A stretch of DNA of 29,540 bases from Candidatus Micrarchaeia archaeon (GCA_038870455.1 JAWCPB010000011.1:1-29540); one strand, 5' to 3'; shown: positions 594 through 22,426, numbered from the stretch's first letter. Numbers and translations: made by a program. Notes: generated by a model from the sequence alone, not told the origin.

Positions 594-1235
594 ATGGCCC
601 TGCCGTACACCAAGAAAGTGCTTGAGTATTTCATGCATCCCAAAAACGTAGGCGAGATAAAGAACCCTGATGCGGTGGCAACGCTGGGCTCGCCCGCGTG
701 CGGCGACATGATAACCACTTACCTGAGGGTGAATCCCAAGACGCTTGTCGTGGAGGATGTGAAGTTCAAATCGTACGGGTGCGCGGCCAACATAGCCACG
801 GCGTCAGTCATTTCGGAAAAAGCCAAAGGCAGGACTGTGCATGAGATACTCGCCATGGACACGGCGACCGCGGCGAGGGAGCTGGGAGGACTGCCGCCGG
901 TCAAAATGCACTGCTCCGTGCTGGCGGTGAACACGCTCAAGAAGGCGATTAAGGAGTACATGGTGGCCAAGGGCATCTGGAAAAAGGAGGAAGTGCCGCT
1001 CACGCAGGATGCGATACTCTCCGAGCTGTTAAACGTCGTGAATCCGGAAATCGGGCTGGACATCGTGAGGCTGAAGATGGTCGAGAACATCAGGATAGAC
1101 AATGGGGAGGTGGAGGTGACCATCCGGCTCGGAACAACCGATGAGATGTTCGCCCAGGCCATCAAGGAAGAAGTGGAGGAGGAGCTCCGGGAACTCCAGG
1201 AGGTTAAGAAAGTCACGGTAATAGTGAAGAAGTGA
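594..1235 (+). CDS. iscU: IscU/NifU Fe-S scaffold fused to a C-terminal DUF59 (SufT/MIP18-like) domain
   Basis: YTKKVLEYFMHPKNVG, ACGD, FKSYGC and LPPVKMHCS give the three scaffold Cys. The C-terminal ~80 aa contain L.NVVNPEIGLDIV.L.MV..I.I, resembling DUF59. GAGGTGG RBS upstream. Confidence 0.92.
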   Translation: MALPYTKKVLEYFMHPKNVGEIKNPDAVATLGSPACGDMITTYLRVNPKTLVVEDVKFKSYGCAANIATASVISEKAKGRTVHEILAMDTATAARELGGLPPVKMHCSVLAVNTLKKAIKEYMVAKGIWKKEEVPLTQDAILSELLNVVNPEIGLDIVRLKMVENIRIDNGEVEVTIRLGTTDEMFAQAIKEEVEEELRELQEVKKVTVIVKK

Positions 1236-1239
1236 TGAA

Positions 1240-2511
1240 GTGCAGGAGCCCGTTTCGGTGATAATAGCCGACCCCCAAGGGAGGATTGTCTCTTTCAACA
1301 AGGGGGCTGAGGAAATTTTCGGCTACTCGGCGGAAGAGGTCGTCGGGAGGGCGCGCGTGAGCGTTTTTTACGATTGGCCGGCCGTCCTGCAGGAAGTGCC
1401 CCGCGTGCTGAAGACCGCGAGAGAGCGCGGGCGGTGGGAGGGCAGGGTCGTGCTGAAGAGAAAGAACGGCGGGAAGTTTGTCGGCAAGCTTGTTGTGACG
1501 AGCCTGTGGAAGGACGGCGAGCTGACAGGCTACTGCGGGGTGACGAGAGAGGTGAGGGGGGAAGACGTCGAGGGGAGAGAGGCCAGGCCAACGCTTGTCA
1601 CGCAGCTGATGAAGTGGGTTGTCGTTCTGCGCGCGCCGTTCTTCACCGCAACGATTATCCCGATTTTGTTGGGCGCTGCGCTGGCGTGGCGTGCGACGGG
1701 CGCGTTCGACTGGTGGCTGGGCGCGCTCACGCTGGCCGGCGCGCTCGCGCTGCACGCGGGAGTGAACACCGCCAACGACTACTGGGACTGGAGGACGGGC
1801 AGCGATGAAAAAAACTATGATTACATCGTGCCGTTCACCGGAGGAAGCAGGTCCATCCAGATGGGAATGGTCAGTCCCCGCGCGCTGCTGCTGCTTTCGC
1901 TCGTCCTGCTCGCGGCGGGCTCGGCCATCGGCTTTTACCTCGCGTGGCTAAGGGGATGGCAGATTGTCGCGCTCGGCGCGGTGGGCGTTGCCGCGGGCTA
2001 TTTCTATTCCGCGCCGCCCTTCAGGCTTGCGGGAAGGGGAATAGGAGAACTGCTGGTTGGGCTGAACTTCGGCGTGTTGATGACTCTGGGGGCTTATTTC
2101 GTGCAAGCGCAGGCGCTCGCGCCAGAGCCCCTGCTCGCCTCGCTGCCGGTCAGCTTCCTCATCTCCGCTGTGCTGTGGGCGAACGAGATTCCTGACGCGG
2201 GAGGCGATGCGGCGAGCGGAAAGAAGACCATGGTGGTGAGGCTCGGGAAGGAGAAGGCAGTTGTTGGGTTTGTTGCGCTGCTGTTCCTCGCGTACGTGAG
2301 CCTGCTCGCGGGCATCGCGGTGGCCGCCCTCCCGCTTTTCGCCTTTGCCGCGGTTGCGGGGGCGTTTTTCGCGTGGAAGGCCGCTGGCGAAATAGCCGCG
2401 CATGCAGGGGCATATTACAAGCTGGAGGGGGCGTGCGCCTCAACGCTCGCGGCGCATTTCCTTACCGGAGTGCTGATTGTGGCCGGGGTGCTCGCGGACA
2501 AGCTTATTTAA
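1240..2511 (+). CDS. menA: PAS domain fused to a MenA-like UbiA-family prenyltransferase (1,4-dihydroxy-2-naphthoate polyprenyltransferase)
   Basis: N-terminal PAS/PAC signature (VIIADPQGRIVSFNKGAEEIFGYSAEEVVG...KRKNG...GVTREV). C-terminal polytopic domain has the Asp-rich motifs NTANDYWD and NEIPDAGGD..SGKKT, plus YSAPPFRL..RGIGE. Confidence 0.88.
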   Translation: MQEPVSVIIADPQGRIVSFNKGAEEIFGYSAEEVVGRARVSVFYDWPAVLQEVPRVLKTARERGRWEGRVVLKRKNGGKFVGKLVVTSLWKDGELTGYCGVTREVRGEDVEGREARPTLVTQLMKWVVVLRAPFFTATIIPILLGAALAWRATGAFDWWLGALTLAGALALHAGVNTANDYWDWRTGSDEKNYDYIVPFTGGSRSIQMGMVSPRALLLLSLVLLAAGSAIGFYLAWLRGWQIVALGAVGVAAGYFYSAPPFRLAGRGIGELLVGLNFGVLMTLGAYFVQAQALAPEPLLASLPVSFLISAVLWANEIPDAGGDAASGKKTMVVRLGKEKAVVGFVALLFLAYVSLLAGIAVAALPLFAFAAVAGAFFAWKAAGEIAAHAGAYYKLEGACASTLAAHFLTGVLIVAGVLADKLI

Positions 2512-2533: not shown

Positions 2534-4192
2534 ATGCTCAAGCATGATGTGCTTGTTGTCGGAGCAGGCCTGGCGGGCATGCGGGCCGCGCTGGAGGCGC
2601 ACGATAGAGGTTGTGATGTCGCGGTAGTCTCGAAACTGCACCCCATGCGCTCGCACTCTGGCGCCGCGCAGGGGGGAATAAACGCGGCCATCGGGAAGAA
2701 CGATTCGTGGCAGAAGCACTTTCGCGACACTGTCGTTGCAGGGGACTGGCTGTGCGACCAGGATGCCGTAGAGGCGCTGTGCAGGGAGGCTCCGAAAACG
2801 ATTAGGGAGCTGGAGAGGTTTGGCGCGCTTTTTTCGAGGGACGAGAAGGGAGGCATCGCGCAGAGGCCTTTCGGCGGGCAGGGGTTCGCCCGCACATGCT
2901 ATGCGGCAGACAAGACGGGCCACGAACTGCTGAACGCGCTGTACGGGGAAGTGCTGAGAAGGGGCATAACCGTTTATGAAGAATGGTTCGTGACAGCGCT
3001 CGCCGGAAACGGCGCGTGTTCCGGCGCGGTTGCGTTGGAGATTGCGAGCGGGGAGGTGCAGGCGATTTCCGCGAAGGCCGTTGTCCTCGCAACCGGAGGT
3101 CTCGGCAGGATCTATGGAAAGACGACCAACGCGCTGTCCTGCACAGGTGACGGCGTCGCGCTCGCCCTCCGCGCCGGCGCGCTCCTGAAGGACGTGGAGT
3201 TCGTTCAATTCCATCCCACAACGCTCTGTGGGACCAACATCCTCATCAGCGAGGCGGCGAGAGGCGAAGGCGGTATCCTGCTCAACAGGCGGGGAGAGCG
3301 GTTCATGAAAAAGTACGCGCGGGGGGCGGAGCTCGCGCCCAGGGACGTCGTCGCAAGAAGCATCCAGAGAGAGATTGACGGGGGAAACGGCTTTCCCGGA
3401 GGGTATGTGCAGCTTGACTTGAGGGAGTTGGGCGAGGAGAAAATCAGCGGGAGGCTCCCGCAGGTGAGGGAAATATGCATGCACTTTGCCGGCATCGACC
3501 CGGTCGAAGAGCCCATTCCGGTTCAGCCAGCCCAGCACTATGCTATGGGAGGCATCGCGACTGATTTGGACGGCGCGAGCAGCATGAGGGGACTGTACGC
3601 AGCAGGCGAGTGTGCGTGCTCCGGCGTGCATGGTGCGAACAGGGTCGGCGGTAATTCACTGCTCGAGACGATCGTGTTTGGAAAACGCGCCGGAGAGGCG
3701 GCGGCGGAGCACGCCAAAAAAACGAGCACGGACGCGAGCGAGGCAGAACGCGCGCTGAAAAGAGAGAGAAGACGACTGGAAGAGATTTTTTCCCGCAGGA
3801 AAGGTTACTCGCACTATGCCCTGAGAAGGCGCATGCAGAAAACAATGGATGAAAGAGCAGGGCTGTTCAGAAACGCGGGTGGATTGCAGAAGGCCGCGGA
3901 CGAGCTCGCTGCGCTCAGAAAAGCCGCCGGCCGCGCGTGGGTGGCGGACAAGGGAAAAGAGTTTAACACAGACTTGCTTGCGCTGCTCGAGCTCGAATGC
4001 TCGCTCGAGGCCGCGAGGGTTGTTGTTGCGGGCGCGCTGGCCAGGCAGGAAAGCAGGGGGGCGCACTACAGAACGGATTTCCCTAAAGCGAGAAGAGGAT
4101 GGCTCAAGCACACGCTCGCCAGAGTGAGCGGAGAGGAAATTGTGCTCGGCTACGAGCCGGTCAGGATGACGAGGCTGAAGGTGAAGGGATGA
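2534..4192 (+). CDS. sdhA: Succinate dehydrogenase/fumarate reductase flavoprotein subunit
   Basis: DVLVVGAGLAG Rossmann motif, RSHSGAAQGG (covalent-FAD His), QFHPT, SEAARGEG, HGANRVGGNSL and ESRGAHYR. Start trimmed to the ATG at 2534. Confidence 0.96.
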   Translation: MLKHDVLVVGAGLAGMRAALEAHDRGCDVAVVSKLHPMRSHSGAAQGGINAAIGKNDSWQKHFRDTVVAGDWLCDQDAVEALCREAPKTIRELERFGALFSRDEKGGIAQRPFGGQGFARTCYAADKTGHELLNALYGEVLRRGITVYEEWFVTALAGNGACSGAVALEIASGEVQAISAKAVVLATGGLGRIYGKTTNALSCTGDGVALALRAGALLKDVEFVQFHPTTLCGTNILISEAARGEGGILLNRRGERFMKKYARGAELAPRDVVARSIQREIDGGNGFPGGYVQLDLRELGEEKISGRLPQVREICMHFAGIDPVEEPIPVQPAQHYAMGGIATDLDGASSMRGLYAAGECACSGVHGANRVGGNSLLETIVFGKRAGEAAAEHAKKTSTDASEAERALKRERRRLEEIFSRRKGYSHYALRRRMQKTMDERAGLFRNAGGLQKAADELAALRKAAGRAWVADKGKEFNTDLLALLELECSLEAARVVVAGALARQESRGAHYRTDFPKARRGWLKHTLARVSGEEIVLGYEPVRMTRLKVKG

Positions 4193-5094
4193 ACATAACG
4201 CTCAGGGTGCTCAGGAGCGTCGGGGGAAAAAGCCGGCTCCAGTCCTTTCGTTTGAATCTGCGGAGAGATGCCACTGTGCTCGATGCGCTCAGGGAAGCAA
4301 AGGAAAAGTTCGCGCCCTCGCTCGCGTTCAGGGCGTCGTGCAGGAGCAGGATATGCGGGGCGTGCGCAGTGAGGATAAACGGCACCGCGAGGCTCGCGTG
4401 CGGGACCAGGGTAAGTGAGGTTGCCGAAAAAGGAATAGTCACGGTCGAGCCGCTGAAGAGCGCGCGGGTGGTGAAAGACCTTGTGGTGGATGAGGGCGAG
4501 TTCTGGGAAAAGATGAAAAGTGTTGAGCCCTGGATGGCCTGGGAGGGCGGGCGTATGAGCCGCGCCGAGCTCGAGCGCATCGGGGGTGCGGCCGATTGCA
4601 TTAAGTGCTGGGCCTGCATGAGCGAGTGTGATGTGGCGTGCGAGGATAGAAGTTTTCTGGGACCTGCGCCCGCAGCTGTGGCATGGAGATTTGTTGCGGA
4701 CAAAAGAGATGGAAGGAAAAGGGAAAGGCTCGAGGATGCCGTTCGGCTAGGGTTGTGGAAATGCGCGCATGCCTATGCATGCAGCGAGGTCTGCCCGAAA
4801 AAGGTTGACCCACTTGAGGCGATCGCGAAGCTCAGGGAGGAAGCGCTGAGGCACGGGCTAACCGCCTCGGATGGCGCGAGACATGTGCTGGCATTCGTGG
4901 AGTTGGTGAGGAAGAGTGGCAGGCTCGACGAGATGTTGCTCATCCCCCTCACGCTCGGGGTGAAGTCCATCCGCGAAATCCCCGTGGCGCTCAGGCTGCT
5001 GAAGAAAGGAAAGCTGCCTTTTCCGAGAATGCGCGCCATAAAGGATGCCGTGAGCGCGAGGAGAATGCTTGAAGAAAATGGAGGGAGAAAATGA
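4189..5094 (+). CDS. sdhB: Succinate dehydrogenase/fumarate reductase iron-sulfur subunit with C-terminal extension
   Basis: CRSRICGAC...C (2Fe-2S), CIKCWACMSEC and CAHAYACSEVCP. ATGA overlap with sdhA sets the start at 4189. Confidence 0.93.
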   Translation: MNITLRVLRSVGGKSRLQSFRLNLRRDATVLDALREAKEKFAPSLAFRASCRSRICGACAVRINGTARLACGTRVSEVAEKGIVTVEPLKSARVVKDLVVDEGEFWEKMKSVEPWMAWEGGRMSRAELERIGGAADCIKCWACMSECDVACEDRSFLGPAPAAVAWRFVADKRDGRKRERLEDAVRLGLWKCAHAYACSEVCPKKVDPLEAIAKLREEALRHGLTASDGARHVLAFVELVRKSGRLDEMLLIPLTLGVKSIREIPVALRLLKKGKLPFPRMRAIKDAVSARRMLEENGGRK

Positions 5095-5966
5095 TCCGCT
5101 ACGCTTTCTTTCCAGGTTGCATGGCGGACAACGTTACGAGCGAGCAAAAAAATGCGGCGAGGCTCGTCGCGCAAAAGGTTGGGATAGAGCTCGTTGATTT
5201 CCCTGAGTTTTCGTGCTGCGGGGCGCGAGTGATTCGGGACAAGAGCGAGGAGGCAGAGCTCGCCCTGAATGCGAGAAACTTTGCCTACGCCGAAGAAGCC
5301 GGCCTCGACATGGTGACCATCTGCTCGACCTGCCTGATAACGATGAGCAAGGCGAATCACAGGCTGAAAAACGACGCGAGGCTCAGGAAAGAAATAAACA
5401 GTAAGCTCTCAGAGTTCGACCTCGCCTACAAGGGCAATGTGAGGGTGAAGCACTTCCTGTGGGTGCTCGCTGATGAGATTGATTTGAGGAAATTTGTGGC
5501 CAGGCCGCTGCGTGGGATACGCGCGGCGCCATTCTACGGCTGCCACATCCTGCGCCCCAGCGAGGTGCTCGAGAAAAAGGAGGGCGAGAAGCCTTCATCT
5601 TTTGAAAAGGTCATCCGCGCGCTTGGGGCCACGCCAGTCAGCTATGAGGAGATGTTCCGGTGCTGCGGGTTCCACACCGCGCTCACAGGGAGGGCTACGA
5701 GCGTGAGGCTCGCTGGAAAAGCAGTCGAGAGCGCAGCGGGGGAGCGGGCGGACGTGCTCGTCACTCCCTGCCCGTTCTGCCACGTCATGCTCGACGCCTA
5801 CCAGGAGGACGCCAGGCGACAGCTGGCCTTCAGCGCGCACATTCCCGTGTTGCACCTGGAGCAGCTCGTCGGGCTGGCGCTCGGCCTTCCGCCGAAAGAG
5901 CTCGGGCTGGACAGGAACGTGGAGAGCGTTGAGAAGTTGCTTGCAAAGCTCAGGTTTAAAATCTAA
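5091..5966 (+). CDS. HdrB-like CCG-domain protein (SdhE-type anchor of non-classical type E SDH)
   Basis: YAFFPGC, FSCCG, CSTC, FYGCH..RP, RCCG and TPCPFC form two CCG domains. ATGA overlap with sdhB. Confidence 0.9.
   Translation: MIRYAFFPGCMADNVTSEQKNAARLVAQKVGIELVDFPEFSCCGARVIRDKSEEAELALNARNFAYAEEAGLDMVTICSTCLITMSKANHRLKNDARLRKEINSKLSEFDLAYKGNVRVKHFLWVLADEIDLRKFVARPLRGIRAAPFYGCHILRPSEVLEKKEGEKPSSFEKVIRALGATPVSYEEMFRCCGFHTALTGRATSVRLAGKAVESAAGERADVLVTPCPFCHVMLDAYQEDARRQLAFSAHIPVLHLEQLVGLALGLPPKELGLDRNVESVEKLLAKLRFKI
5938..5965 (+). repeat. 28-bp direct repeat, copy 1 (contains a TATA-like TTTAAAA)
   Basis: TGCTTGCAAAGCTCAGGTTTAAAATCTA, 26/28 identical to 7075-7102. Confidence 0.85.
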
Positions 5967-5984
5967 AAAGACATTTACAAAATC

Positions 5985-7049
5985 GTGTCAGGACAACAAC
6001 AGTATACTGAGCCGCGTATCCAACGATATCTCGAAATAAATAGGGGGCTCACTGAAGAAGAAATCCAAAGGTATCGTGCCTTCAAGTTCATTGTCGTTTT
6101 TGATAAGTCTACCAACACCACGGTCGTGTTCAATCGCAAAGCAATCGAGGAAAAGAACCCTTACGCGCTCTCGAGAGCAATATGCATTGTGCGATGGACG
6201 GAATACGAAGAAGCAAAGGAGCTGTGGGACGCAGTCATCAAAGCCGCAGGGGTGGGTCGCTGGACCAGACTTTTTCGCAAGAAGGAAACAGAAATGCGGA
6301 TAGCGCTTCAGAAGTTGACAGGAGATGAGAATGATATGGTGAGGGATGCGGCAAGAAAAGTGCTGAGAGGAATGATGAAATTCACCGGCCCTCCCGTGCT
6401 GCTTTATCATGATGTGGTGGTGAAAACGAAGCGGTCACGATATGACATTCTGTACGAGGACCTTGCGTACCAGCTGAAGGATGTTCACGATAGAGGATTG
6501 CACACTATTACGGCCACCGAACTTGTAGAAGCAGCGAAGAAAGGAAAGCCTTTGCCAAAAACGATTGTGCTCACATTTGATGATGGCTACGCGAGTTTTT
6601 ACTACAAGGTTTTTCCTCTGCTCAAAAAATATGGAATAAAAGCGACTGTCTTCATCGTGACCGGTGATGTCGGCAAAAAGGGCTACATGACATGGGAGCA
6701 GATCAAAGAAATTGGCGATTCGGGGCTTGTTGAAATCGGCTCTCACTCCGTAAGTCACCGGAACCTCGCCAATATGGATGAGAAGTCTATAATGGAGGAG
6801 CTCAGAAAAAGCAAGGAAGAAATTGAAAAGCATATAGGAAAAAAGGTCAGGGTGTTTGCGTGGCCGTATGGGGAGGCGCCTCTAAACGCCGAAAAGCTGG
6901 TTAAAAAGGCCGGTTATGACGGGGCGTTTCGGAGCTTCGCTCCCCGCGGCGGCGATAACCCATATGGCCTGAACAGAACGTCCACCGGCGGTGAGCAAAG
7001 CAGAATAATTTACGAGGAGGCACGCAATACTGCCCTGAAAAAGGCTTGA
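5985..7049 (+). CDS. Polysaccharide deacetylase (NodB/CE4, IcaB/PgaB-like) with an unassigned N-terminal region
   Basis: PVLLYH, LTFDDG, ATVFIVT, EIGSHSVSH and FAWPYG motifs. GTG start lies 30 nt after TTTAAAA. Confidence 0.9.
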   Translation: MSGQQQYTEPRIQRYLEINRGLTEEEIQRYRAFKFIVVFDKSTNTTVVFNRKAIEEKNPYALSRAICIVRWTEYEEAKELWDAVIKAAGVGRWTRLFRKKETEMRIALQKLTGDENDMVRDAARKVLRGMMKFTGPPVLLYHDVVVKTKRSRYDILYEDLAYQLKDVHDRGLHTITATELVEAAKKGKPLPKTIVLTFDDGYASFYYKVFPLLKKYGIKATVFIVTGDVGKKGYMTWEQIKEIGDSGLVEIGSHSVSHRNLANMDEKSIMEELRKSKEEIEKHIGKKVRVFAWPYGEAPLNAEKLVKKAGYDGAFRSFAPRGGDNPYGLNRTSTGGEQSRIIYEEARNTALKKA

Positions 7050-7122: not shown

Positions 7123-7398
7123 GTGAGTGTGCCCCAGTTCGTGAAAATAAAGGCTCTCGGCAAAAAGCCCGCCTCCGCGCAGGACGCTCCGGAAGGGATA
7201 ATCGTTGCCGAGCCGCCCCGGGATCCAGAGCTCGCCGCGAGAGCCGAGCGGTATGGGCTTCCTGTGATAACAGTCATCACGGAATCCGGCAGCCCGAGGT
7301 ACGCCAAGTCCGGAGAGGCTTATCTGAGTCTGAGCGTCAGAGAGGGGGAGGTCGCGCGGGTCGCCACGCTTACAGCCGCAGGCCCAGCCATTGAATGA
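7123..7398 (+). CDS. Small hypothetical protein (91 aa)
   Basis: GTG lies 31 nt after TTTAAAA (7092). Composition is protein-like and the ORF fills the gap. Its 3' end overlaps the convergent hydrolase gene by 29 nt. Confidence 0.55.
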   Translation: MSVPQFVKIKALGKKPASAQDAPEGIIVAEPPRDPELAARAERYGLPVITVITESGSPRYAKSGEAYLSLSVREGEVARVATLTAAGPAIE

Positions 7399-8062
7399 TC
7401 TCCTGCGTTAGATTTGTCCTCGCCAGCATGTCGGTGCCGTGCCCAGCTCCCGAAAAAGTCCTGAGCTCGCTGGCGGAAGCGAGCTGAGCGAGGCGCTGTA
7501 CAGATATGAAGGAGTACTCATCCTCGTCGCTCGCTGCGATGAGAAGGGGAATGGCCGTCCTGCCCGCCGCATCCTCGGTCTTCACGCCGCGGTAATCGAG
7601 GCCGGGTGAGAGGAGCACGGCGGCTTTGACATCGCTGTCGCCGGCTGCGTATACGAGCGCGGTGTTCGCGCCAATGCTTGCGCCAATGAGCGCGAAGGCG
7701 CGCGCGCCCTGCGAGGCGAGGAATTCCTTGGCGGCCCGCACATCCTCCACCATCGAGTTGAAATCGGCCTCGCCAAAGGAGTCCCATGTTCCTTTGTTCG
7801 TGCTTCCGCCGTGCCCGCGCGAGTCGATGGCAAGCGTTTTGTAGCCCGCCTTCTGGAGAGCGAGCGCCAGCTCCCTGTAAGTGCTCCTGTCCCGTCTCAG
7901 CATGTGAAGCAGGATGACGCTCTTGTCCGAGCTCGCATTATAGAAAGTCCCCTTGATGAGCCAGCCATCGGCAGTAGTGAGGGTCACCTCTCGCACGTCA
8001 ATCCCGCCCGGGGCCTGCGCGCATCCTGCCAGCAAGAGCGCGATGAGGAATGCCGCGCGCAT
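7370..8062 (-). CDS. Alpha/beta hydrolase with lipoprotein-type signal peptide
   Basis: N-terminal MRAAFLIALLLAGC lipobox. ILLH, IDSRGHG, nucleophile elbow GASIG, Asp (SDED) and His (GHGT) are present. Confidence 0.9.
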   Translation of the reverse strand: MRAAFLIALLLAGCAQAPGGIDVREVTLTTADGWLIKGTFYNASSDKSVILLHMLRRDRSTYRELALALQKAGYKTLAIDSRGHGGSTNKGTWDSFGEADFNSMVEDVRAAKEFLASQGARAFALIGASIGANTALVYAAGDSDVKAAVLLSPGLDYRGVKTEDAAGRTAIPLLIAASDEDEYSFISVQRLAQLASASELRTFSGAGHGTDMLARTNLTQEIIQWLGLRL

Positions 8063-10573: not shown

Positions 10574-11869
10574 TTAGAAAAACCTTCTGCCCTTGTGCTC
10601 CCTTTCGTGCGGCTGCCTTCTGTGTCCGTAGCCGCCTTCCCTCCTCTCGTGCGGCCTTCCGCCGTACCCACGCCTCTCGCTGTGAGGCCTTTCCCAGCGC
10701 GGCCTTTCGCCTGCCGCGCCTTCCCTTCTGGGCGCGTGCTCGCGCGGCTGCCAGGGCGGAAGCTCTATCTTCTCTTCCTCCATCCTTATCCCGCATGTCC
10801 TCTCTATCTGCCCGAGCAGGCCCATCTCATCATGCGCGATGATGCTGAAAGCCGTCCCGCCTTTTCCCATCCTTCCGGTTCTGCCCACCCTGTGCGTGTA
10901 TGTCAGCGGGTCTTCCGGAATGTTGAAGTTTATCACATGCGATATTTCAGGAATATCGAGGCCGCGGGCCGCCAAGTCCGTTGCCACCAGCATGTTGGTT
11001 TTCCCCTGCTTGAACAATGACATGGCCGTGTCGCGCTGCCTCTGGCTCAGGTCCCCGTGAAGCGCTTCTGCCCTGAATCCAATCCTACGCAGGTCACGGG
11101 CAAGCCTGTCCGCCCCGAACTTCGTCCTGCAGAATATTATGGTGTGCGTGGGGGCGTGTTTTTTGAGATAGGCGAACAGCGTGCGGTGGCGGTCCCTGTG
11201 GTTGATTTCCACAAACGAATGCCTGATGTGTGTTATCGTAATCTCGTCCCTGCTCACAGAAATGAACTGCGGGTAGTTCTGGTATTCCTTCGAAAGCGCG
11301 AGAATCTCGGGCGGCATGGTGGCCGAGAAGAGCAGCGTCTGCCTCTCCCTACTGACGTGCGACAGGATGCGCCTCACATCGTCGATGAATCCCATGTCCA
11401 GCATCCTGTCCGCCTCGTCAATCACGACGAAATGCACTTTGCTCAAGTCGAGTGTGCGCCTCTCCAGGTGGTCGAGTATCCTTCCGGGCGTTCCCACGAC
11501 AATATGAACGCCTCTCCTCAGCTCCTCTATCTGGGGATTGATACTCGCTCCGCCGTAAATCGTAGTCACTTTAATGCGCGTGTGCTTTCCGATGCGCTTT
11601 ATCTCATCCGTAATCTGGACGGCCAGCTCCCTTGTCGGCGCGAGCACAAGCCCCTGGACTTCCCTTGAGTCAGGCTCGACCGTTTCAACCAGATAAATTC
11701 CGAAAACCGCAGTCTTTCCAGTTCCGGTCTTTGCCTGGCCGATGACGTCCTTTCCTTGAAAGACGACCGGCAGCGCCTCCATCTGTATGTCCGTGGGCTT
11801 TTCGAAGCCCATTTCCTGCAGCGCCCGCAGCACTTCAGGCCGCAGGTTAAATCTAGCAAATTCGCTCAT
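10574..11869 (-). CDS. DEAD-box RNA helicase
   Basis: Q motif, AKTGTGKT, PTRELA, TPGR, DEAD, SAT, ARGLD and HRVGRTGR, with an Arg/Gly-rich tail. Start trimmed to MSEF (ATG 11869, GGAGG upstream). Confidence 0.96.
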   Translation of the reverse strand: MSEFARFNLRPEVLRALQEMGFEKPTDIQMEALPVVFQGKDVIGQAKTGTGKTAVFGIYLVETVEPDSREVQGLVLAPTRELAVQITDEIKRIGKHTRIKVTTIYGGASINPQIEELRRGVHIVVGTPGRILDHLERRTLDLSKVHFVVIDEADRMLDMGFIDDVRRILSHVSRERQTLLFSATMPPEILALSKEYQNYPQFISVSRDEITITHIRHSFVEINHRDRHRTLFAYLKKHAPTHTIIFCRTKFGADRLARDLRRIGFRAEALHGDLSQRQRDTAMSLFKQGKTNMLVATDLAARGLDIPEISHVINFNIPEDPLTYTHRVGRTGRMGKGGTAFSIIAHDEMGLLGQIERTCGIRMEEEKIELPPWQPREHAPRREGAAGERPRWERPHSERRGYGGRPHERREGGYGHRRQPHEREHKGRRFF

Positions 11870-11959
11870 GCAATTTCCTCCAAGTTTCTGAAAGAATGAG
11901 AAACAGAATTTTCCCCTTCTTTCTTCAAACTCTTTTTTCAACTGTCTTATATTATGAAG

Positions 11960-11990
11960 CTCTGGGTTTAAAAGCATGCTTATATACCGG
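11960..11990. promoter_or_regulatory. Back-to-back TATA boxes of a divergent promoter
   Basis: GGGTTTAAAAGCATGCTTATATACC. TTATATA lies about 31 nt before GTG 12011, and TTTTAAA on the minus strand faces the helicase. Confidence 0.55.
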
Positions 11991-12010
11991 AAAGCCCCCA
12001 AACCCTTCCC

Positions 12011-13483
12011 GTGACAGCACATCAGACAAGGCGGATAGCAAGAGAGGTCAAGGTTTTTGCCGATGAGCGGAAAGGCTTTCGCGACCGGCTCCTCAGCGAA
12101 AAGGAAGCCCGCATCGAAGAGCTGCTCCAGCGCATCGGGGGAAAGACCATCCACGGGATTGACGAGAACGGGAGGCCGGCGAAGACCAAGCCACCCCACC
12201 GCCTGAAGGCGTGCATCACCTCAAGCGGCAGGGTGACGCTCGAATTCTCAAGGGAAAGCCACAGGAGGGTTGCGCGCCTGCTTCCCGAAACGATTGAAGG
12301 GCTGGCCAGGAAAGGCGGGAAATTCCCCGGAAAGAAAACAACTTTTTCAACAGACCTGCTGCATGCTGTCAGGAGCCTGAAGCACCTGAGGGAAGGACAC
12401 GCGAGCGAGATATCGGCCAAGGACAGGGTTCTCGATGAGGTCAAGAGGCTGAACCTTGAGCTCGACCAGCTTGATTCCCATGCGTCAAAAATGGAGCTTG
12501 ATGCGTTCAGGAAGAGGCTCCAGGGCTTTGTTGTAGAGCTGGAAAAAATGAAACTGCTTCTCAAACGCGCGGCCAAAAACAAGCTGGCCGAGGCCGCAGG
12601 ACTACTGGCGCAGGTTGGGGAAGAAGATAACGCGCAGGAAAAGTACCGCCTCCTAACCGCAGCGTGCTCCAAAATCGCTGCGGTCGAAAACCGCTTGGGA
12701 AGATGGCGCGACGAGGACATCATCGGCATGGACTTCTACAACCTCCTGCGCGAGCGCGCCCTGCGCCTCGCGCGTGACGCCTTTCTCTGCTTCGAGCTCA
12801 AGAGATATGCGGGAATTTTCGGAAGCCCCTGCAGCGCCAGCAGGTGGCTCGGGTTTTACAGGCACGACATGGAAGTCGTTGCGCTCATCGAGTCGATTGG
12901 AGAGGAAATCCAGCGCCCGCGGCTCTCGCTGCCAGAAGAGCAGTCTGCGAGAATCACCGCAGTGAGCAACCTCCTCCTCGCGCTCGACAGCCCGGATGCG
13001 ATGCCGCGACTCGAAGCCATCGGGAAAGCGGTCGCGGAAGAAGGCCGCGATTACATCGCGCTGCGCGAGCTCAGGCAAGCCTATAGGGCGCTGAAGAAAG
13101 GGGACGAGCTGGAGGCGGCGGCTCGCCTGGAAGAGTCCCTTCGCTTCTACTCCGACAGGCTCTCCTACCTCGCCGGGGAAATGAATAACGAGAAGTGGCT
13201 CGTGGCGCGCCACCTTTACATGGCGCGCGACCATCTCATGAGAAAAAGACGCCCGCAGAGGAGCGAAGCCCTCAATCACTTCGAGAAAGCCATTCGCTTC
13301 ATCCGCATGAACAAGCTCGATTACTTTGCTGAAGAGCTTGAGGAGACAGGGGACGCTTACACAAGCCAGGCCGTCAAGCTCATAAAACAGGCTCACGAGC
13401 ATTTCATCAGCGGCCGCTTCGCCCAGGCGCGCGAGTGCTGTCTGCAGGCAGAGGCCGAGATAAGGAAGTTCCAGCCAAAGTGA
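12011..13483 (+). CDS. Hypothetical alpha-helical/coiled-coil protein (490 aa)
   Basis: Long ORF rich in E/K/R/L/A with a TATA upstream and a TGATG overlap with the next gene. No recognised motif. Confidence 0.8.
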   Translation: MTAHQTRRIAREVKVFADERKGFRDRLLSEKEARIEELLQRIGGKTIHGIDENGRPAKTKPPHRLKACITSSGRVTLEFSRESHRRVARLLPETIEGLARKGGKFPGKKTTFSTDLLHAVRSLKHLREGHASEISAKDRVLDEVKRLNLELDQLDSHASKMELDAFRKRLQGFVVELEKMKLLLKRAAKNKLAEAAGLLAQVGEEDNAQEKYRLLTAACSKIAAVENRLGRWRDEDIIGMDFYNLLRERALRLARDAFLCFELKRYAGIFGSPCSASRWLGFYRHDMEVVALIESIGEEIQRPRLSLPEEQSARITAVSNLLLALDSPDAMPRLEAIGKAVAEEGRDYIALRELRQAYRALKKGDELEAAARLEESLRFYSDRLSYLAGEMNNEKWLVARHLYMARDHLMRKRRPQRSEALNHFEKAIRFIRMNKLDYFAEELEETGDAYTSQAVKLIKQAHEHFISGRFAQARECCLQAEAEIRKFQPK

Positions 13484-14562
13484 TGGGCATGGACAATGGG
13501 CTCGAGCTTGCCCTCGGAAGATACCTGCGGGTGATGGCCGATGAGCTGCCGGCGCGTTTCCTCGTTGCAAAACGCGTTCCCGTAAAGATAAGCGAAAACA
13601 TCGATGAAAATTGGGAGGAACACGAGAAGGGGGTGGCGAGGTTTGAGCAGCTTCTCAAAAAAATCTCTTCACTGCACGAGCTCGCCAGGATGCCCAAGGC
13701 CTCGCCAAATCTCCTTGACCTGAAAGCGAAAATTGCCGATACCCTGACCGAGGCGTGCATTTTCTGCGAGCGCCGGTGCAGGGCGAACAGGAAGGCAGGC
13801 AAGCTCGGCTGGTGCAGGGTGGGCTATGTCTCGCGCGTTGCCTCGGCTTTTGAGCACCTCGGCGAAGAGCCCGAGTTCGTTCCCAGCGGGACGATTTTTT
13901 TTGCTGGCTGCAACCTGGCGTGCGCGTTCTGCCAGAACTGGGATATCGCATTCTTTCCAGAGCGAGGGACGGTGTGGAGCAGTCGGGACTACTGCGGCTG
14001 GATAGCTAAGCGCAGGAGTGCTCCCGGCGGCTTTCGCATTCGGAATGTGAATCTCGTGGGAGGAGAGCCGACGCCGAACCTCCATACAATTCTGCGGTGG
14101 CTGGCCGAGTGCGACATCAACATCCCGGTTATATGGAATTCGAACATGTTTCTCAGCGTGGAGGGCATGCGCTTGTTGCACGGTGTGGTCGATGTTTTCA
14201 TCGATGATATCAAGTACGCTGACGACCGATGCGCCATGCGTCTCTCAAAAGCGCCCAAATATTGGGATACGGTCAAACGAAACAACCTGATGGCGATAAA
14301 TCAGGCAGAGATTCTCGTCCGCCACCTCGTCATGCCCGCCCACCTCGAATGCGACACAAAACCTATTTTCGATTGGATTAAGGCAAACCTGGGCGACCGC
14401 GTGCGCGTGAACATCATGAGCCAGTACCACCCCGAGTACAAGGCATTCGACTTCCCGGATATTTCGAGGAGGCTGCGGCCCGAGGAGTACGCGGAGGCAG
14501 TGGATTACGCTAAAAAGATTGGCTTGTGGAACATCGAGCTCCAGCCCATGGGCTTTCTGTGA
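13483..14562 (+). CDS. Radical SAM protein, PflX-like (pyruvate formate-lyase activating enzyme-related family)
   Basis: CIFCERRC, HLGEE...PSGTIFFAGCNLACAFCQNWDI (CX3CX2C), GGEP, VRHLVMP and NIMSQY.P. Confidence 0.9.
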   Translation: MGMDNGLELALGRYLRVMADELPARFLVAKRVPVKISENIDENWEEHEKGVARFEQLLKKISSLHELARMPKASPNLLDLKAKIADTLTEACIFCERRCRANRKAGKLGWCRVGYVSRVASAFEHLGEEPEFVPSGTIFFAGCNLACAFCQNWDIAFFPERGTVWSSRDYCGWIAKRRSAPGGFRIRNVNLVGGEPTPNLHTILRWLAECDINIPVIWNSNMFLSVEGMRLLHGVVDVFIDDIKYADDRCAMRLSKAPKYWDTVKRNNLMAINQAEILVRHLVMPAHLECDTKPIFDWIKANLGDRVRVNIMSQYHPEYKAFDFPDISRRLRPEEYAEAVDYAKKIGLWNIELQPMGFL

Positions 14563-19772: not shown

Positions 19773-21353
19773 CTAATGAGGAATCTGCGGCAGCTCCCTT
19801 ATCACCGGCTCGGCTTCTGATACTTTCCCAAGAATGACTCTCTGCAGCTCGACGACAGGCCATTCCTCGAGCGCCTTGAGCGCGAAGTCAAGCTTCGCCT
19901 CGCTCTCGGAGACTATCTCGAACAGCACGTCGCCGGCCTTGACGCGGTCGCCGTGCTCCGTGTGCAGGATGACGCCCGCGCCCTTGTCCTTGGGCGCGCC
20001 CGCCGCGCGCGCTATCTTATTGACCATCCTGTTATCCACGTGCTCCACCCTGCCCTCTTTCTCCGCGACGATCTCGTGCCTGAACTTGCCCACGGGAATG
20101 TCTTCGATGCGTACATTCGGGTTACCCCCCTGCGCTTCGATGATCTCGCGCATCTTGTTGTACGCCTTGCCGCTCTTGAGCAGGTTGAGCGCAACCTCAT
20201 AGCCACCTCCTTTTTCCACTTTGCCGCACAGCTCGAAAAGCGCGCCCGCGAGCTGGCAGCTCTTGTCCATCAAATCCTGCGGCCCGCTTCCCTGCAGCAC
20301 GTTCAGCACATCAATGCACTCGAGGCCCGGCCCCACGCCGTTCCCCACCGGATCCGTGCCGTCTGTCAGGAACGCCTCGAGCCGCATGCCGAGCCTCGTG
20401 CCGATTTCGAGAAAGTCGCTGGCCAGGCTGCTTGCAGTCTTGACGTCCTCTATTTTCGCCCCCCTGCCGACAGGAATGTCGATGACCACGTACTCGGCGC
20501 CGACGGCTTTCTTCTTGGCGAGAATGCTCGCAAGCAGGACTCCCCTCGGGTCGAGCCTTAGCGGATGTCTTATCCTAATGAGGTGGTCGTCGGCAGGCGC
20601 GAGGTTTATTCCCCCTCCCCAGACGATGCACCCGCCCGTCTTGAGCACAATCCTCTTCATTTCCTCGACGCTGAACTCCACGCTCGCCAGCACTTCCATG
20701 GTGTCCGCGGTTCCGGCCGCGCTTGTTATCGATCGCGAGGAAGTCTTCGGGACGAACAGGCCGCCCGCGGCGAGAATCGGGACCATGACCATGGTCGTCC
20801 TGTTGCCCGCAACCCCGCCGGCGCAGTGCTTGTCGACAACAGGCTTTTTCCCCAAGTCAAGCGTCGCTCCGGAACCGACTATGGCGTTGGTGAGCGCGAC
20901 CGTCTCGTCCTGGCTGAGGCCCCTTATGTACAAGCTTGCGATGAACGCGCTGAGCTCGATTTCGCTGAGCTTGTTCTCCATCGTTTCCCTGATTATGGCA
21001 TCGATTTCCTCGCTTTTCAGCGGCTTTCCGTCCATCTTCTTTTTGATGAAATCAATGCTCGCGGGCTGCCTGGTATGCCTTATTTCAATGAGGTCACCCG
21101 GATTCACCCTCAGCTTTTTCATCACTTCGGAGAACACCCCGACCTCGCCTCGCTTGACGAGGGAGGCGCTGAGGTCGCATATGACTGTCAGCTCCTGCGC
21201 GCCCTTCTGCAGGATTATCCTGTCGGCCGTGTAGACGTCGTTCTCGTGCGCCTCTTCCTCGTTGAGCACGGCGATGAGCGGCCCGGCCTCTATGTCAAAG
21301 CACTTGGCTCGTGTTATGTATGGTTTGAACTTCCACACCTCCCCTCCGGCCAT
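19773..21353 (-). CDS. AMP phosphorylase (thymidine phosphorylase family)
   Basis: DKHCAGGVAGN, PKTSSRSITSAAGTADTMEVL, SILAKK and ARAAGAPKDKGAG, with the N-terminal extra domain. Adjacent to the R15P isomerase gene. Confidence 0.94.
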   Translation of the reverse strand: MAGGEVWKFKPYITRAKCFDIEAGPLIAVLNEEEAHENDVYTADRIILQKGAQELTVICDLSASLVKRGEVGVFSEVMKKLRVNPGDLIEIRHTRQPASIDFIKKKMDGKPLKSEEIDAIIRETMENKLSEIELSAFIASLYIRGLSQDETVALTNAIVGSGATLDLGKKPVVDKHCAGGVAGNRTTMVMVPILAAGGLFVPKTSSRSITSAAGTADTMEVLASVEFSVEEMKRIVLKTGGCIVWGGGINLAPADDHLIRIRHPLRLDPRGVLLASILAKKKAVGAEYVVIDIPVGRGAKIEDVKTASSLASDFLEIGTRLGMRLEAFLTDGTDPVGNGVGPGLECIDVLNVLQGSGPQDLMDKSCQLAGALFELCGKVEKGGGYEVALNLLKSGKAYNKMREIIEAQGGNPNVRIEDIPVGKFRHEIVAEKEGRVEHVDNRMVNKIARAAGAPKDKGAGVILHTEHGDRVKAGDVLFEIVSESEAKLDFALKALEEWPVVELQRVILGKVSEAEPVIRELPQIPH

Positions 21354-21357
21354 GCGC

Positions 21358-22326
21358 TCACCTTCGCCTTTCCTCCAGGAAAGCCGCAAACGGGTTCTCC
21401 ACGGGAAAGGCGTTCCTGACGAAGCTCAGCAGCCCCTGCGGGGGAATCACGCCCATTTCGGTGATGTACGCGTGAATGTGCTCCGCGGGAGTGACGTCAA
21501 AGGCCGGGTTCCGCACGCGCACGCCCTTGAACTCCGGCCCGCCAGCCACCTCGTCGGCAGCCCGCTCTTCAATGGTTTCCATCGTGCCCCACATGGTGAG
21601 GGGATCGAACTTGTGGAGCTCGGCCGCGGAGTAGAACGGCACGCCGGCGTGCCGCGCGACCAGCGCGAGGACAGAAGTACCGATTTTGTTGTACAGGTCG
21701 CCCGTGGCGGAAATGGCGTCAGCCCCCACCATCGCCACGTGCGCGTCGCGGATGAGGCTCTTCATCGCGCCGTCGACTATGAGCGTGACCGGCACGCCGG
21801 CGTCGCGCAGCTCCTTGGCCGTGATGTGCCCCTGGTACTTGGGCCTCGTCTCGCACGCTATGACATCAATGTCCCTGCCGATCTCGTGGGCGCGCTTGAG
21901 GATGGACACAACCGTGGAGGAGTGGCAGTGGGTCATGACCGTGGCGCCCTGCGGGATTTCCTTCGCCCCGTACTCGGCTATGCTGCGCAGCGCGGCCTCG
22001 ACGCTCTTGAAGTAGCTCGCCTCCTCTCTCGCCACGATGGCCTTGAGCTGCCCAACGCTCGCCGCCCTGTTTTTCCTCAGCTGCACAAGCACGTGCCGGA
22101 TGGAGTTCCTCAGCGAGTTGCGGAGCATGGGCTCGGTGGGCCTCGTTGCGGCCAGCGCGTCGGCGGCTTCGAGCAGTTCTGCCAGGAACTCGGAGGGCTT
22201 TTTCGCCTTGCTCTTCCTGGCCTGCACCCCCAGCGCATGCACGGCCGCCTTGGCGATTTCCCTGGCTCCCTGTATCTTCAAGGCACGAATGTCCCTGCAG
22301 ATTTCTTTGACTTCGTCTGCCACCAT
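21358..22326 (-). CDS. Ribose-1,5-bisphosphate isomerase (eIF-2B-like family)
   Basis: IQGA, TRPTEP.LRN, THCHS, ETRP..QG, GAD, NKIGT and NPAFDVTP. Cotranscribed with AMP phosphorylase. Confidence 0.92.
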   Translation of the reverse strand: MVADEVKEICRDIRALKIQGAREIAKAAVHALGVQARKSKAKKPSEFLAELLEAADALAATRPTEPMLRNSLRNSIRHVLVQLRKNRAASVGQLKAIVAREEASYFKSVEAALRSIAEYGAKEIPQGATVMTHCHSSTVVSILKRAHEIGRDIDVIACETRPKYQGHITAKELRDAGVPVTLIVDGAMKSLIRDAHVAMVGADAISATGDLYNKIGTSVLALVARHAGVPFYSAAELHKFDPLTMWGTMETIEERAADEVAGGPEFKGVRVRNPAFDVTPAEHIHAYITEMGVIPPQGLLSFVRNAFPVENPFAAFLEERRR

Positions 22327-22426
22327 CAAATCATCGTCGGAGCGCTATTGGGTGTGAACCTTTAAATAGGTTAGTCGGTATAACGTTTTAAAGCTCTCCT
22401 TGCTAAATAAAACAAAGGTGCTTAGT

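Follow-up and report, generated by a model that had tools for sequence, protein, structure and literature searches.

The stretch of DNA analyzed here (the window) comprises 29,540 nucleotides from Candidatus Micrarchaeia archaeon (GCA_038870455.1 JAWCPB010000011.1:1-29540) and carries, at 1240..2511 on the plus strand, a gene of 423 codons plus a stop that begins with GTG and encodes a PAS domain joined to a MenA-like prenyltransferase of the UbiA superfamily (henceforth PAS-MenA). The PAS domain occupies residues 4-105 (1249..1554), with strands A, B, G, H and I and helices C-F, and was recognized by Pfam, NCBIfam, AlphaFold2 (AF2) modelling and Foldseek. It is followed by a linker of 13 residues (106-118; 1555..1593), confidently modelled by AF2 as coil, and by a helix that precedes the first transmembrane segment (TM1) and near which single-domain relatives start. 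This pre-TM1 helix (residues 119-131; 1594..1632; H119-130 in the AF2 model) holds the conserved W126 and R131 and an internal methionine, Met124. The UbiA/MenA-type transmembrane domain proper (residues 132-423; 1633..2508) consists of nine long helices, is identified by Pfam, NCBIfam, AF2 and a match to UBIAD1, and bears the first Asp-rich motif N176-x2-N179-D180-x2-D183-x5-D189 at 1765..1806 and the second, N315-x2-P318-D319-x3-D323-x4-K328, at 2182..2223. Neither a stop nor a frameshift interrupts the frame between the two domains. The description given in an earlier note on this DNA, of a PAS domain, a short linker and a complete UbiA/MenA domain with both Asp-rich motifs in one uninterrupted frame, is borne out by Pfam and NCBIfam, and its coordinates proved accurate.

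Two in-frame stops, TAG at 1222-1224 and TGA at 1225-1227, lie directly 5' of the open reading frame (ORF) and therefore rule out a longer N-terminal form. A Shine-Dalgarno-like GTGATG (1232..1237, plus strand), which we take to resemble the complement of the archaeal anti-Shine-Dalgarno sequence, lies 3 nt 5' of the GTG start and overlaps the nifU stop codon at 1233-1235. An independent 152-kb contig from a Candidatus Micrarchaeia archaeon (L001) has GTGAGG at the equivalent place and starts with ATG at the very position of the window's GTG. The two genes align without a gap across all 1272 nt, with 84% identity over the PAS-linker query and 87% over the UbiA domain, and the junction (residues 105-131, nt 1552-1632) is collinear and free of gaps. 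The order of genes is also common to both: cysteine desulfurase, NifU, the fusion, SdhA, SdhB and SdhE. The ratio of nonsynonymous to synonymous substitution rates (dN/dS) between the window and L001 is 0.18 for the PAS domain, 0.33 for the linker (here residues 106-131) and 0.12 for UbiA; the PAS domain is therefore translated and constrained by purifying selection.

The non-ATG start, together with the in-frame ATG of Met124 immediately ahead of TM1, might suggest an artefact, in the form either of a chimeric junction or of a true start at Met124 that leaves the PAS-like stretch outside the protein. We regard this as very improbable, since L001 has the identical junction and begins with ATG at the upstream position, a fused ORF is also present in 76 of 80 species-level genomes (see below), the PAS domain is under purifying selection, and Met124 is not conserved, being replaced by another residue in 16 of 18 aligned fusions. 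Both a chimeric junction and an internal start had been raised by the earlier note as ways in which the fusion could prove illusory, and both are contradicted by these results. We conclude that the PAS-MenA fusion is real, that assembly did not create it and that its translation begins at the upstream start.

The identity of the N-terminal domain is clear from several models. Pfam PAS_9 matches residues 4-104 with 47.7 bits (cut-off 27, E 2e-12), Pfam PAS matches the same residues with 40.4 bits, also above its cut-off, and NCBIfam TIGR00229 (sensory_box) scores 58 bits against a cut-off of 22.9. In the AF2 model this region folds into E6-10, E15-19, H21-63 and E65-104 (strands 65-73, 79-91 and 94-104), so that a five-stranded sheet with flanking helices and curated PAS scores are both found. 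The best PAS fold in Foldseek is 3lyx (TM score 0.80-0.83, root mean square deviation 1.1-1.5), whose PDB title names no ligand; the next solved folds are FAD-binding NifL (2gj3), Aer (8dik), LOV domains and heme-binding DosP. A profile built from bacterial fusions only gives the window PAS domain 97.6 bits and at most 49 to generic multi-PAS sensor repeats, which were the best PAS-only hits. By this comparison, the fused PAS domain forms a dedicated subfamily specific to PAS-MenA fusions rather than a generic sensor repeat.

For the enzyme domain, Pfam UbiA (PF01040) matches residues 139-382 with 118.2 bits (cut-off 34.2, E 5e-34), and NCBIfam MenA-type models span residues 116-421. The ten best NCBIfam models are all of MenA-type or generic prenyltransferases, with chlorophyll-synthase models far behind. 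Among solved proteins, UBIAD1 (8djk) is the closest, both by profile (E 4e-22) and by fold (TMt 0.75 in Foldseek), and Foldseek also matches the domain to DGGGP synthase and to ApUbiA/AfUbiA. Over 112 distinct fused sequences, N176, N179, D180, D183 and D189 of the first motif are each present in all 112, as are N315, P318 and D319 of the second, with D323 and K328 in 111. Judged from the conservation of these Asn and Asp residues, the catalytic site is intact, and the source annotations of relatives, which are automatic names, read DHNA (1,4-dihydroxy-2-naphthoate) octaprenyltransferase. We infer that the enzyme part prenylates 1,4-dihydroxy-2-naphthoate for menaquinone.

AF2 modelling with 46 sequences gave nine long helices with a predicted local distance difference test score (pLDDT) of 93.3 and a predicted TM score (pTM) of 0.90; with 18 sequences the corresponding values were 86.5 and 0.84. 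The blocks that cover the linker (residues 101-120) have a pLDDT of 92-94. Lysines and arginines number eight on the loops of the N-terminal side and zero on the opposite loops, which therefore places the PAS domain and both Asp-rich motifs in the cytoplasm. Active sites of the UbiA family face the cytoplasm. In the model, the PAS domain is thus predicted to be held rigidly by its short, ordered linker on the side of the enzyme that faces the cytoplasm and carries the active site.

The fusion, for which the earlier note had proposed a domain-architecture search (PAS plus UbiA), recurs widely and is common in uncultured bacteria. Scanning a genome collection with an alignment of PAS, linker and TM1 gave 230 pattern matches; tblastn confirmed 192, of which the 80 best were retained. 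At 76 of these 80 loci the PAS match lies inside an ORF of at least 400 residues that ends in a stop; three of the others run off their contigs and one has an ORF of 369 residues. Local hidden Markov models (HMMs) found both domains in 77 of 78 fusion ORFs examined, that of the window included, and several of the loci are on nanopore or Mb-scale contigs. Bacteria account for 78 of the 80 loci (59 Chloroflexota, 7 Fidelibacterota, 4 Gemmatimonadota, 3 Myxococcota, 2 Ignavibacteriota and 3 others), and some records are assigned to the cultured species Thermoflexus hugenholtzii and Anaerolinea thermophila. Two loci are labelled archaeal. One of them, L030 (CAYWRD010000211.1, 2.5 kb, labelled Nitrosopumilaceae), groups on short branches with an Anaerolineales copy, L005 (99% in the Shimodaira-Hasegawa-like approximate likelihood ratio test, SH-aLRT), and probably represents mis-binned bacterial DNA, not a further archaeal lineage that carries the fusion. 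The window copy is an archaeal outlier among the fusions.

Protein collections agree with the genome scan. Among 120 listed near-length homologues, PAS plus UbiA occurs in 19 (the window's own included) and PF01243 plus UbiA in 13; the best 150 representatives at 50% identity include 20 PAS-UbiA fusions, among them the window's own and one partial sequence of 292 residues. The ESM Atlas holds 18 clusters of at least 50 members with PAS plus UbiA, some of them automatically named 'PAS/UbiA prenyltransferase family domain-containing protein'. Thus, the PAS-MenA architecture is already catalogued automatically: it is widespread and uncharacterised, a variant of a known enzyme and not a new kind. 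A search for stand-alone or split PAS partners (residues 1-118 against proteins of 30-231 residues, 25 candidates) found none at E<=1e-10, at a sensitivity limited to shared words. The earlier note had also stated that MenA is normally a single-domain enzyme, which needs qualifying for the subfamily of the window protein, where N-terminal fusions are common: of 336 relatives with a near-complete UbiA domain, a sample biased toward relatives of a fused query, 116 carry this PAS domain and 40 another N-terminal extension.

A scan of 32 extended forms found PNPOx_N in 12, four of them above the Pfam cut-off, and EF-hand plus PAS in one; the other 19 gave no N-terminal Pfam match and have an N-terminal region of 50-200 residues. 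PNPOx_N (PF01243, a split-barrel) joined to UbiA constitutes a second fusion type of 462-516 residues (P0020, P0025, P0042, P0045, P0047, P0055, P0058, P0091, P0093, P0105, P0114, P0119 and P0121), with further PNPOx_N-UbiA or extended examples in P0138, P0157, P0178, P0214, P0225 and others; the source names for this type include Bipolaricaulia, Margulisiibacteriota and Methanofastidiosia. P0134 (551 residues) carries an EF-hand pair, PAS and UbiA, which suggests that calcium could act as an input in addition to the PAS module. Three further proteins, P0127, P0135 and P0139, are PAS-fused yet lie deep within the single-domain clade, and their PAS signature differs, with His44 in 'FH.P' and Met99 replacing Cys99. 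The PAS domain of P0139 scores only 49 bits against the profile of the main clade and may represent an independent fusion.

Four residues form a signature of the fused PAS domain, counted over the 112 distinct sequences mentioned above: Cys10 in strand A (102/112; Ala in the window), Arg39 before helix E-alpha (107/112; also Arg in the window), His52 in helix F (83/112; Glu in the window) and Cys99 in the GYCGVT motif of strand I-beta (101/112). The window codon for Cys99 lies at 1534..1536 on the plus strand and encodes the sole signature cysteine retained in this copy. The family His52 aligns with the His of the DosP sequence 'RPAHPEY', which we take to be its proximal heme ligand. In heme-binding PAS domains the proximal His is on helix F-alpha, and this feature may hold for the family, not for the window copy: assignment of the latter to the classical heme-PAS type (DosP/FixL) was rejected given Glu52 and a PAS domain free of histidine. 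When compared with thiol-switch PAS domains, the window copy has one of the family cysteines (C99, in I-beta), the second (C10) being Ala. The photoadduct Cys of LOV domains sits in an E-alpha motif of the 'NCRFLQ' type. The window sequence has no Cys in the stretch G36-R-A-R-V-S-V-F43, and LOV structures are only distant fold matches, so a LOV assignment was rejected as well.

In the window, the fusion gene stands between genes for Fe-S assembly and for succinate dehydrogenase, all on the plus strand. Upstream lie two operon partners, the C-terminal part of a cysteine desulfurase (3-584) and, directly after it, a protein with NifU_N and FeS_assembly_P domains (594-1235) whose stop lies 4 nt before the start of the fusion gene; here a NifU_N scaffold and a DUF59-type FeS_assembly_P domain are joined in one protein of 213 residues that is translationally coupled to PAS-MenA. 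Downstream, sdhA (2534-4192) starts 22 nt after the fusion gene, followed by sdhB (4189, an inferred start, to 5094) and a gene for a CCG-domain SdhE-type subunit (5091-5966). Stop and start codons overlap among these downstream operon partners, and the fusion gene lies with them in a tightly packed operon. The succinate:quinone oxidoreductase is of the type with a CCG-domain SdhE anchor instead of a heme-b subunit; the best model for this anchor is SdhE of methylmenaquinol:fumarate reductase, with 257 bits against a cut-off of 500. Two candidates for further menaquinone genes were rejected: a radical-SAM ORF (13435-14562) as MqnC/MqnE, since it matches glycyl-radical-enzyme activases best, in every case below cut-off, and an alpha/beta hydrolase (7370-8062) as MenH, which scores 36 against 208 bits. 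Complete or near-complete menaquinone pathways are reported for some Micrarchaeota orders (PMC12892359).

Elsewhere in the window, a polysaccharide deacetylase gene (5985-7049, plus strand), also present in L001, coincides with a low-GC stretch (6001-6900; 0.47-0.48, compared with 0.57-0.64 on either side) and may be an older foreign insertion. On the minus strand at 19773-22329, an AMP-phosphorylase-like protein of 537 residues (Glycos_trans_3N, Glycos_transf_3, PYNP_C) adjoins an IF-2B-family protein of the ribose-1,5-bisphosphate isomerase type; the two are an archaeal AMP salvage pair, and no RuBisCO gene was found among the window ORFs scanned. Archaeal gene content also includes diphthamide synthase and L10/P0 with an RL10P insert. 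A 490-residue ORF at 12011-13483 (plus strand) has no Pfam or NCBIfam match and shares about 190 nt with the 5' end of a DEAD-box helicase gene (10574-12199) that runs on the opposite strand; its reality as a gene is uncertain.

How might a PAS domain serve a prenyltransferase? The reading we favour, with about as much confidence as doubt, is that PAS-MenA, a genuine two-domain protein, carries out MenA-type prenylation of DHNA and has the PAS domain as a built-in redox or ligand regulator. On this view, 1,4-dihydroxy-2-naphthoate would receive its polyprenyl tail from the enzyme part, which is the step that commits menaquinone synthesis to the membrane, and the succinate dehydrogenase of the adjacent downstream genes would thereby be supplied with quinone. 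In response to redox state or to a small ligand, the PAS domain would adjust how far the active-site cap is accessible or closed. On the model of PAS sensors that use thiols or heme, most members of the family would sense through the Cys10/Cys99 pair, through His52, or both; in the window copy only Cys99 and Arg39 remain, and sensing there would therefore be altered or reduced. The predicted fixed docking on the cytoplasmic side and the Cys/His/Arg signature of the family favour the earlier note's inference of a ligand- or redox-gated enzyme. A more specific version, in which PAS-MenA proteins are one-component sensors whose heme- or thiol-based PAS domain reads oxygen or the redox state of the quinone pool and directly gates the MenA step, the archaeal copy being a horizontally acquired and rewired form, is a tentative proposal that we think rather doubtful.

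Several observations weigh against the favoured reading. The window PAS domain retains only Arg39 and Cys99 of the four signature residues and has no His within residues 1-118; like L001, it has Y44-D45-W46 where relatives have S-P-G, together with Ala10 and Glu52, and none of our analyses assigned a cofactor or ligand to it. All MenA equivalog models score the enzyme under their curated cut-offs (TIGR00751, 100.3 against 102.15; the best, NF004751, 153.1 against 264), and by these scores the enzyme is nearest to MenA yet not an equivalog member. The 29.5-kb window contains no other men or mqn gene. Around 78 fusion genes, with 857 called genes and with L022, L054 and L069 dropped as their ORFs run off the contig, neighbourhoods are not conserved, the best cluster (extracytoplasmic function sigma factor and ATP-binding cassette ATPase, 11/78) being unrelated to quinones. 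In favour of the reading, a polyprenyl synthetase gene lies just upstream on the same strand at four of these 78 loci, and a UbiE/COQ5 methyltransferase gene is adjacent at four.

Some of the tree results weigh against it too. In a FastTree phylogeny of 334 UbiA domains, a fully supported branch separates 108 of 114 PAS-fused rows from the trio that includes the window, which falls on the other, mostly single-domain side; the UbiA domain of the window likewise has a median identity of 45% to single-domain relatives and 40.6% to fused ones. A tree of the PAS domain alone is poorly resolved, and in it the pair that includes the window is not cleanly sister to the PAS clade of the main fusions. 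A mixture-model tree of 84 rows leaves this pair in an unresolved position at the central branch, and constraining the pair and the main fused clade together improved the log-likelihood by 42 (p 0.875 in the approximately unbiased (AU) test, for a group named after the tree was seen), so that a shared clade is not rejected. An independent origin of the archaeal fusion, hinted at by FastTree, is not claimed here, given the position in the mixture-model tree and the AU result. The simplest reading, unproven, would be one old fusion followed by transfer into Micrarchaeia, and gene transfer from bacteria is the most likely source of the archaeal copy.

Among other explanations, the PAS domain could be a non-sensing structural module that stabilises, oligomerises or localises the enzyme, for instance through PAS-PAS dimerisation, at least in the archaeal copy. 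Many PAS domains carry no cofactor. We consider this explanation somewhat unlikely overall, but it is a serious rival for the window copy because the sensing residues there are partly lost: Cys10 and His52 are missing and the bulky Y44-D45-W46 stands where relatives have S-P-G. The rigid, fixed arrangement of PAS and enzyme in the AF2 model also suits a structural part, and purifying selection is compatible with a structural role no less than with a sensory one. However, structure alone hardly explains the Cys/Cys/His/Arg signature that runs through the family, and at the equivalent position sister proteins have other N-terminal domains that bind small molecules (PNPOx_N in 12 of 32 scanned, EF-hand plus PAS in one); these alternative domains point to an input of signal or cofactor. 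A different role, as a redox accessory whose flavin or heme maintains the proper redox state of the naphthoquinol substrate or product during prenylation, the PNPOx-like domain doing likewise, would accord with the flavin or heme found in the nearest ligand-known PAS folds (NifL 2gj3, Aer 8dik, LOV, DosP) and with the PNPOx_N-UbiA fusions of the same UbiA subfamily. Yet the window PAS domain is free of His and has no cofactor assigned, LOV-type flavin motifs are not evident in its sequence, and to our knowledge no PAS domain acts catalytically on quinones. A split-barrel enzyme, Ddn, is discussed as an F420-dependent quinone reductase (PMC3567243), which would suit such an accessory; still, we judge this role to be quite improbable.

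The doubt can instead fall on the enzyme. Were the UbiA-type domain to act on another aromatic or lipid acceptor and not on DHNA, the PAS domain would control a different product, and the sub-threshold scores of every MenA equivalog model, the lack of men or mqn genes in the window and the mostly uninformative gene neighbourhoods would all fit. We think this improbable, given that MenA-type or generic prenyltransferase models fill the top ten NCBIfam places with chlorophyll synthase far below, that UBIAD1 is the top solved relative by sequence and by fold, that UbiE/COQ5 and polyprenyl synthetase genes are neighbours in some genomes, and that relatives are automatically annotated as DHNA octaprenyltransferase.

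PAS-MenA can be set beside several known systems. Characterised MenA and UBIAD1 are single-domain proteins. PAS-MenA shares with them the UbiA-superfamily fold of nine helices, both Asp-rich motifs and best models of the MenA type, but adds 118 N-terminal residues of PAS and linker and scores under the MenA equivalog cut-offs. The nearest solved PAS folds with a cofactor are those of DosP (EcDOS)/FixL and NifL/Aer, and the family His52 aligns with the DosP His; however, the window copy has Glu52 and no His, His52 is found in only 83 of 112 family members, and no flavin-binding motif was recognized. The PAS cysteines of ArcB and EvgS are reported to be quinone-linked redox switches, with C683 of EvgS in I-beta (PMC8174306). 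PAS-MenA resembles these proteins in having a membrane-adjacent cytoplasmic PAS domain with conserved cysteines, the family Cys99 being in I-beta like C683; it differs in that their output is a histidine kinase and not an integral-membrane enzyme, in that there is no sequence-level orthology, and in that the window copy keeps one of the two family cysteines. In the menaquinone pathway itself, allosteric feedback of DHNA on MenD, a post-translational protection of redox balance, is reported (PMC9835592, 10.1101/841569, PMC12421875). MenD is a post-translationally regulated enzyme of this pathway, but a soluble and early one with an allosteric site, and not a membrane prenyltransferase with a fused sensor. 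The catalogued PAS/UbiA clusters have the same architecture, with automatic names only and neither function nor experiment attached. The earlier note knew of no characterised example, and the literature we searched, with subscription journals outside its coverage, likewise gave no description of a PAS-MenA fusion.

In the literature examined here, known post-translational control of menaquinone synthesis concerns early soluble steps only (DHNA on MenD). A sensor on the membrane prenyltransferase would constitute a new level of control over the supply of respiratory quinone, and a rare example of an integral-membrane biosynthetic enzyme under PAS control. If the PAS domain indeed gates the MenA step by reading oxygen or the quinone pool, PAS-MenA would be the first UbiA-superfamily enzyme regulated by a sensor domain, and the PNPOx-like and EF-hand plus PAS modules on sister enzymes would identify MenA as a point where quinone supply is generally controlled after translation. 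The family is large, with 192 species-level genomes found by the scan, and it includes records assigned to cultured species; the gating hypothesis can therefore be tested directly. For the archaeon, a PAS-MenA gene flanked by genes for Fe-S assembly and for succinate dehydrogenase is relevant to the respiratory self-sufficiency of some Micrarchaeota.

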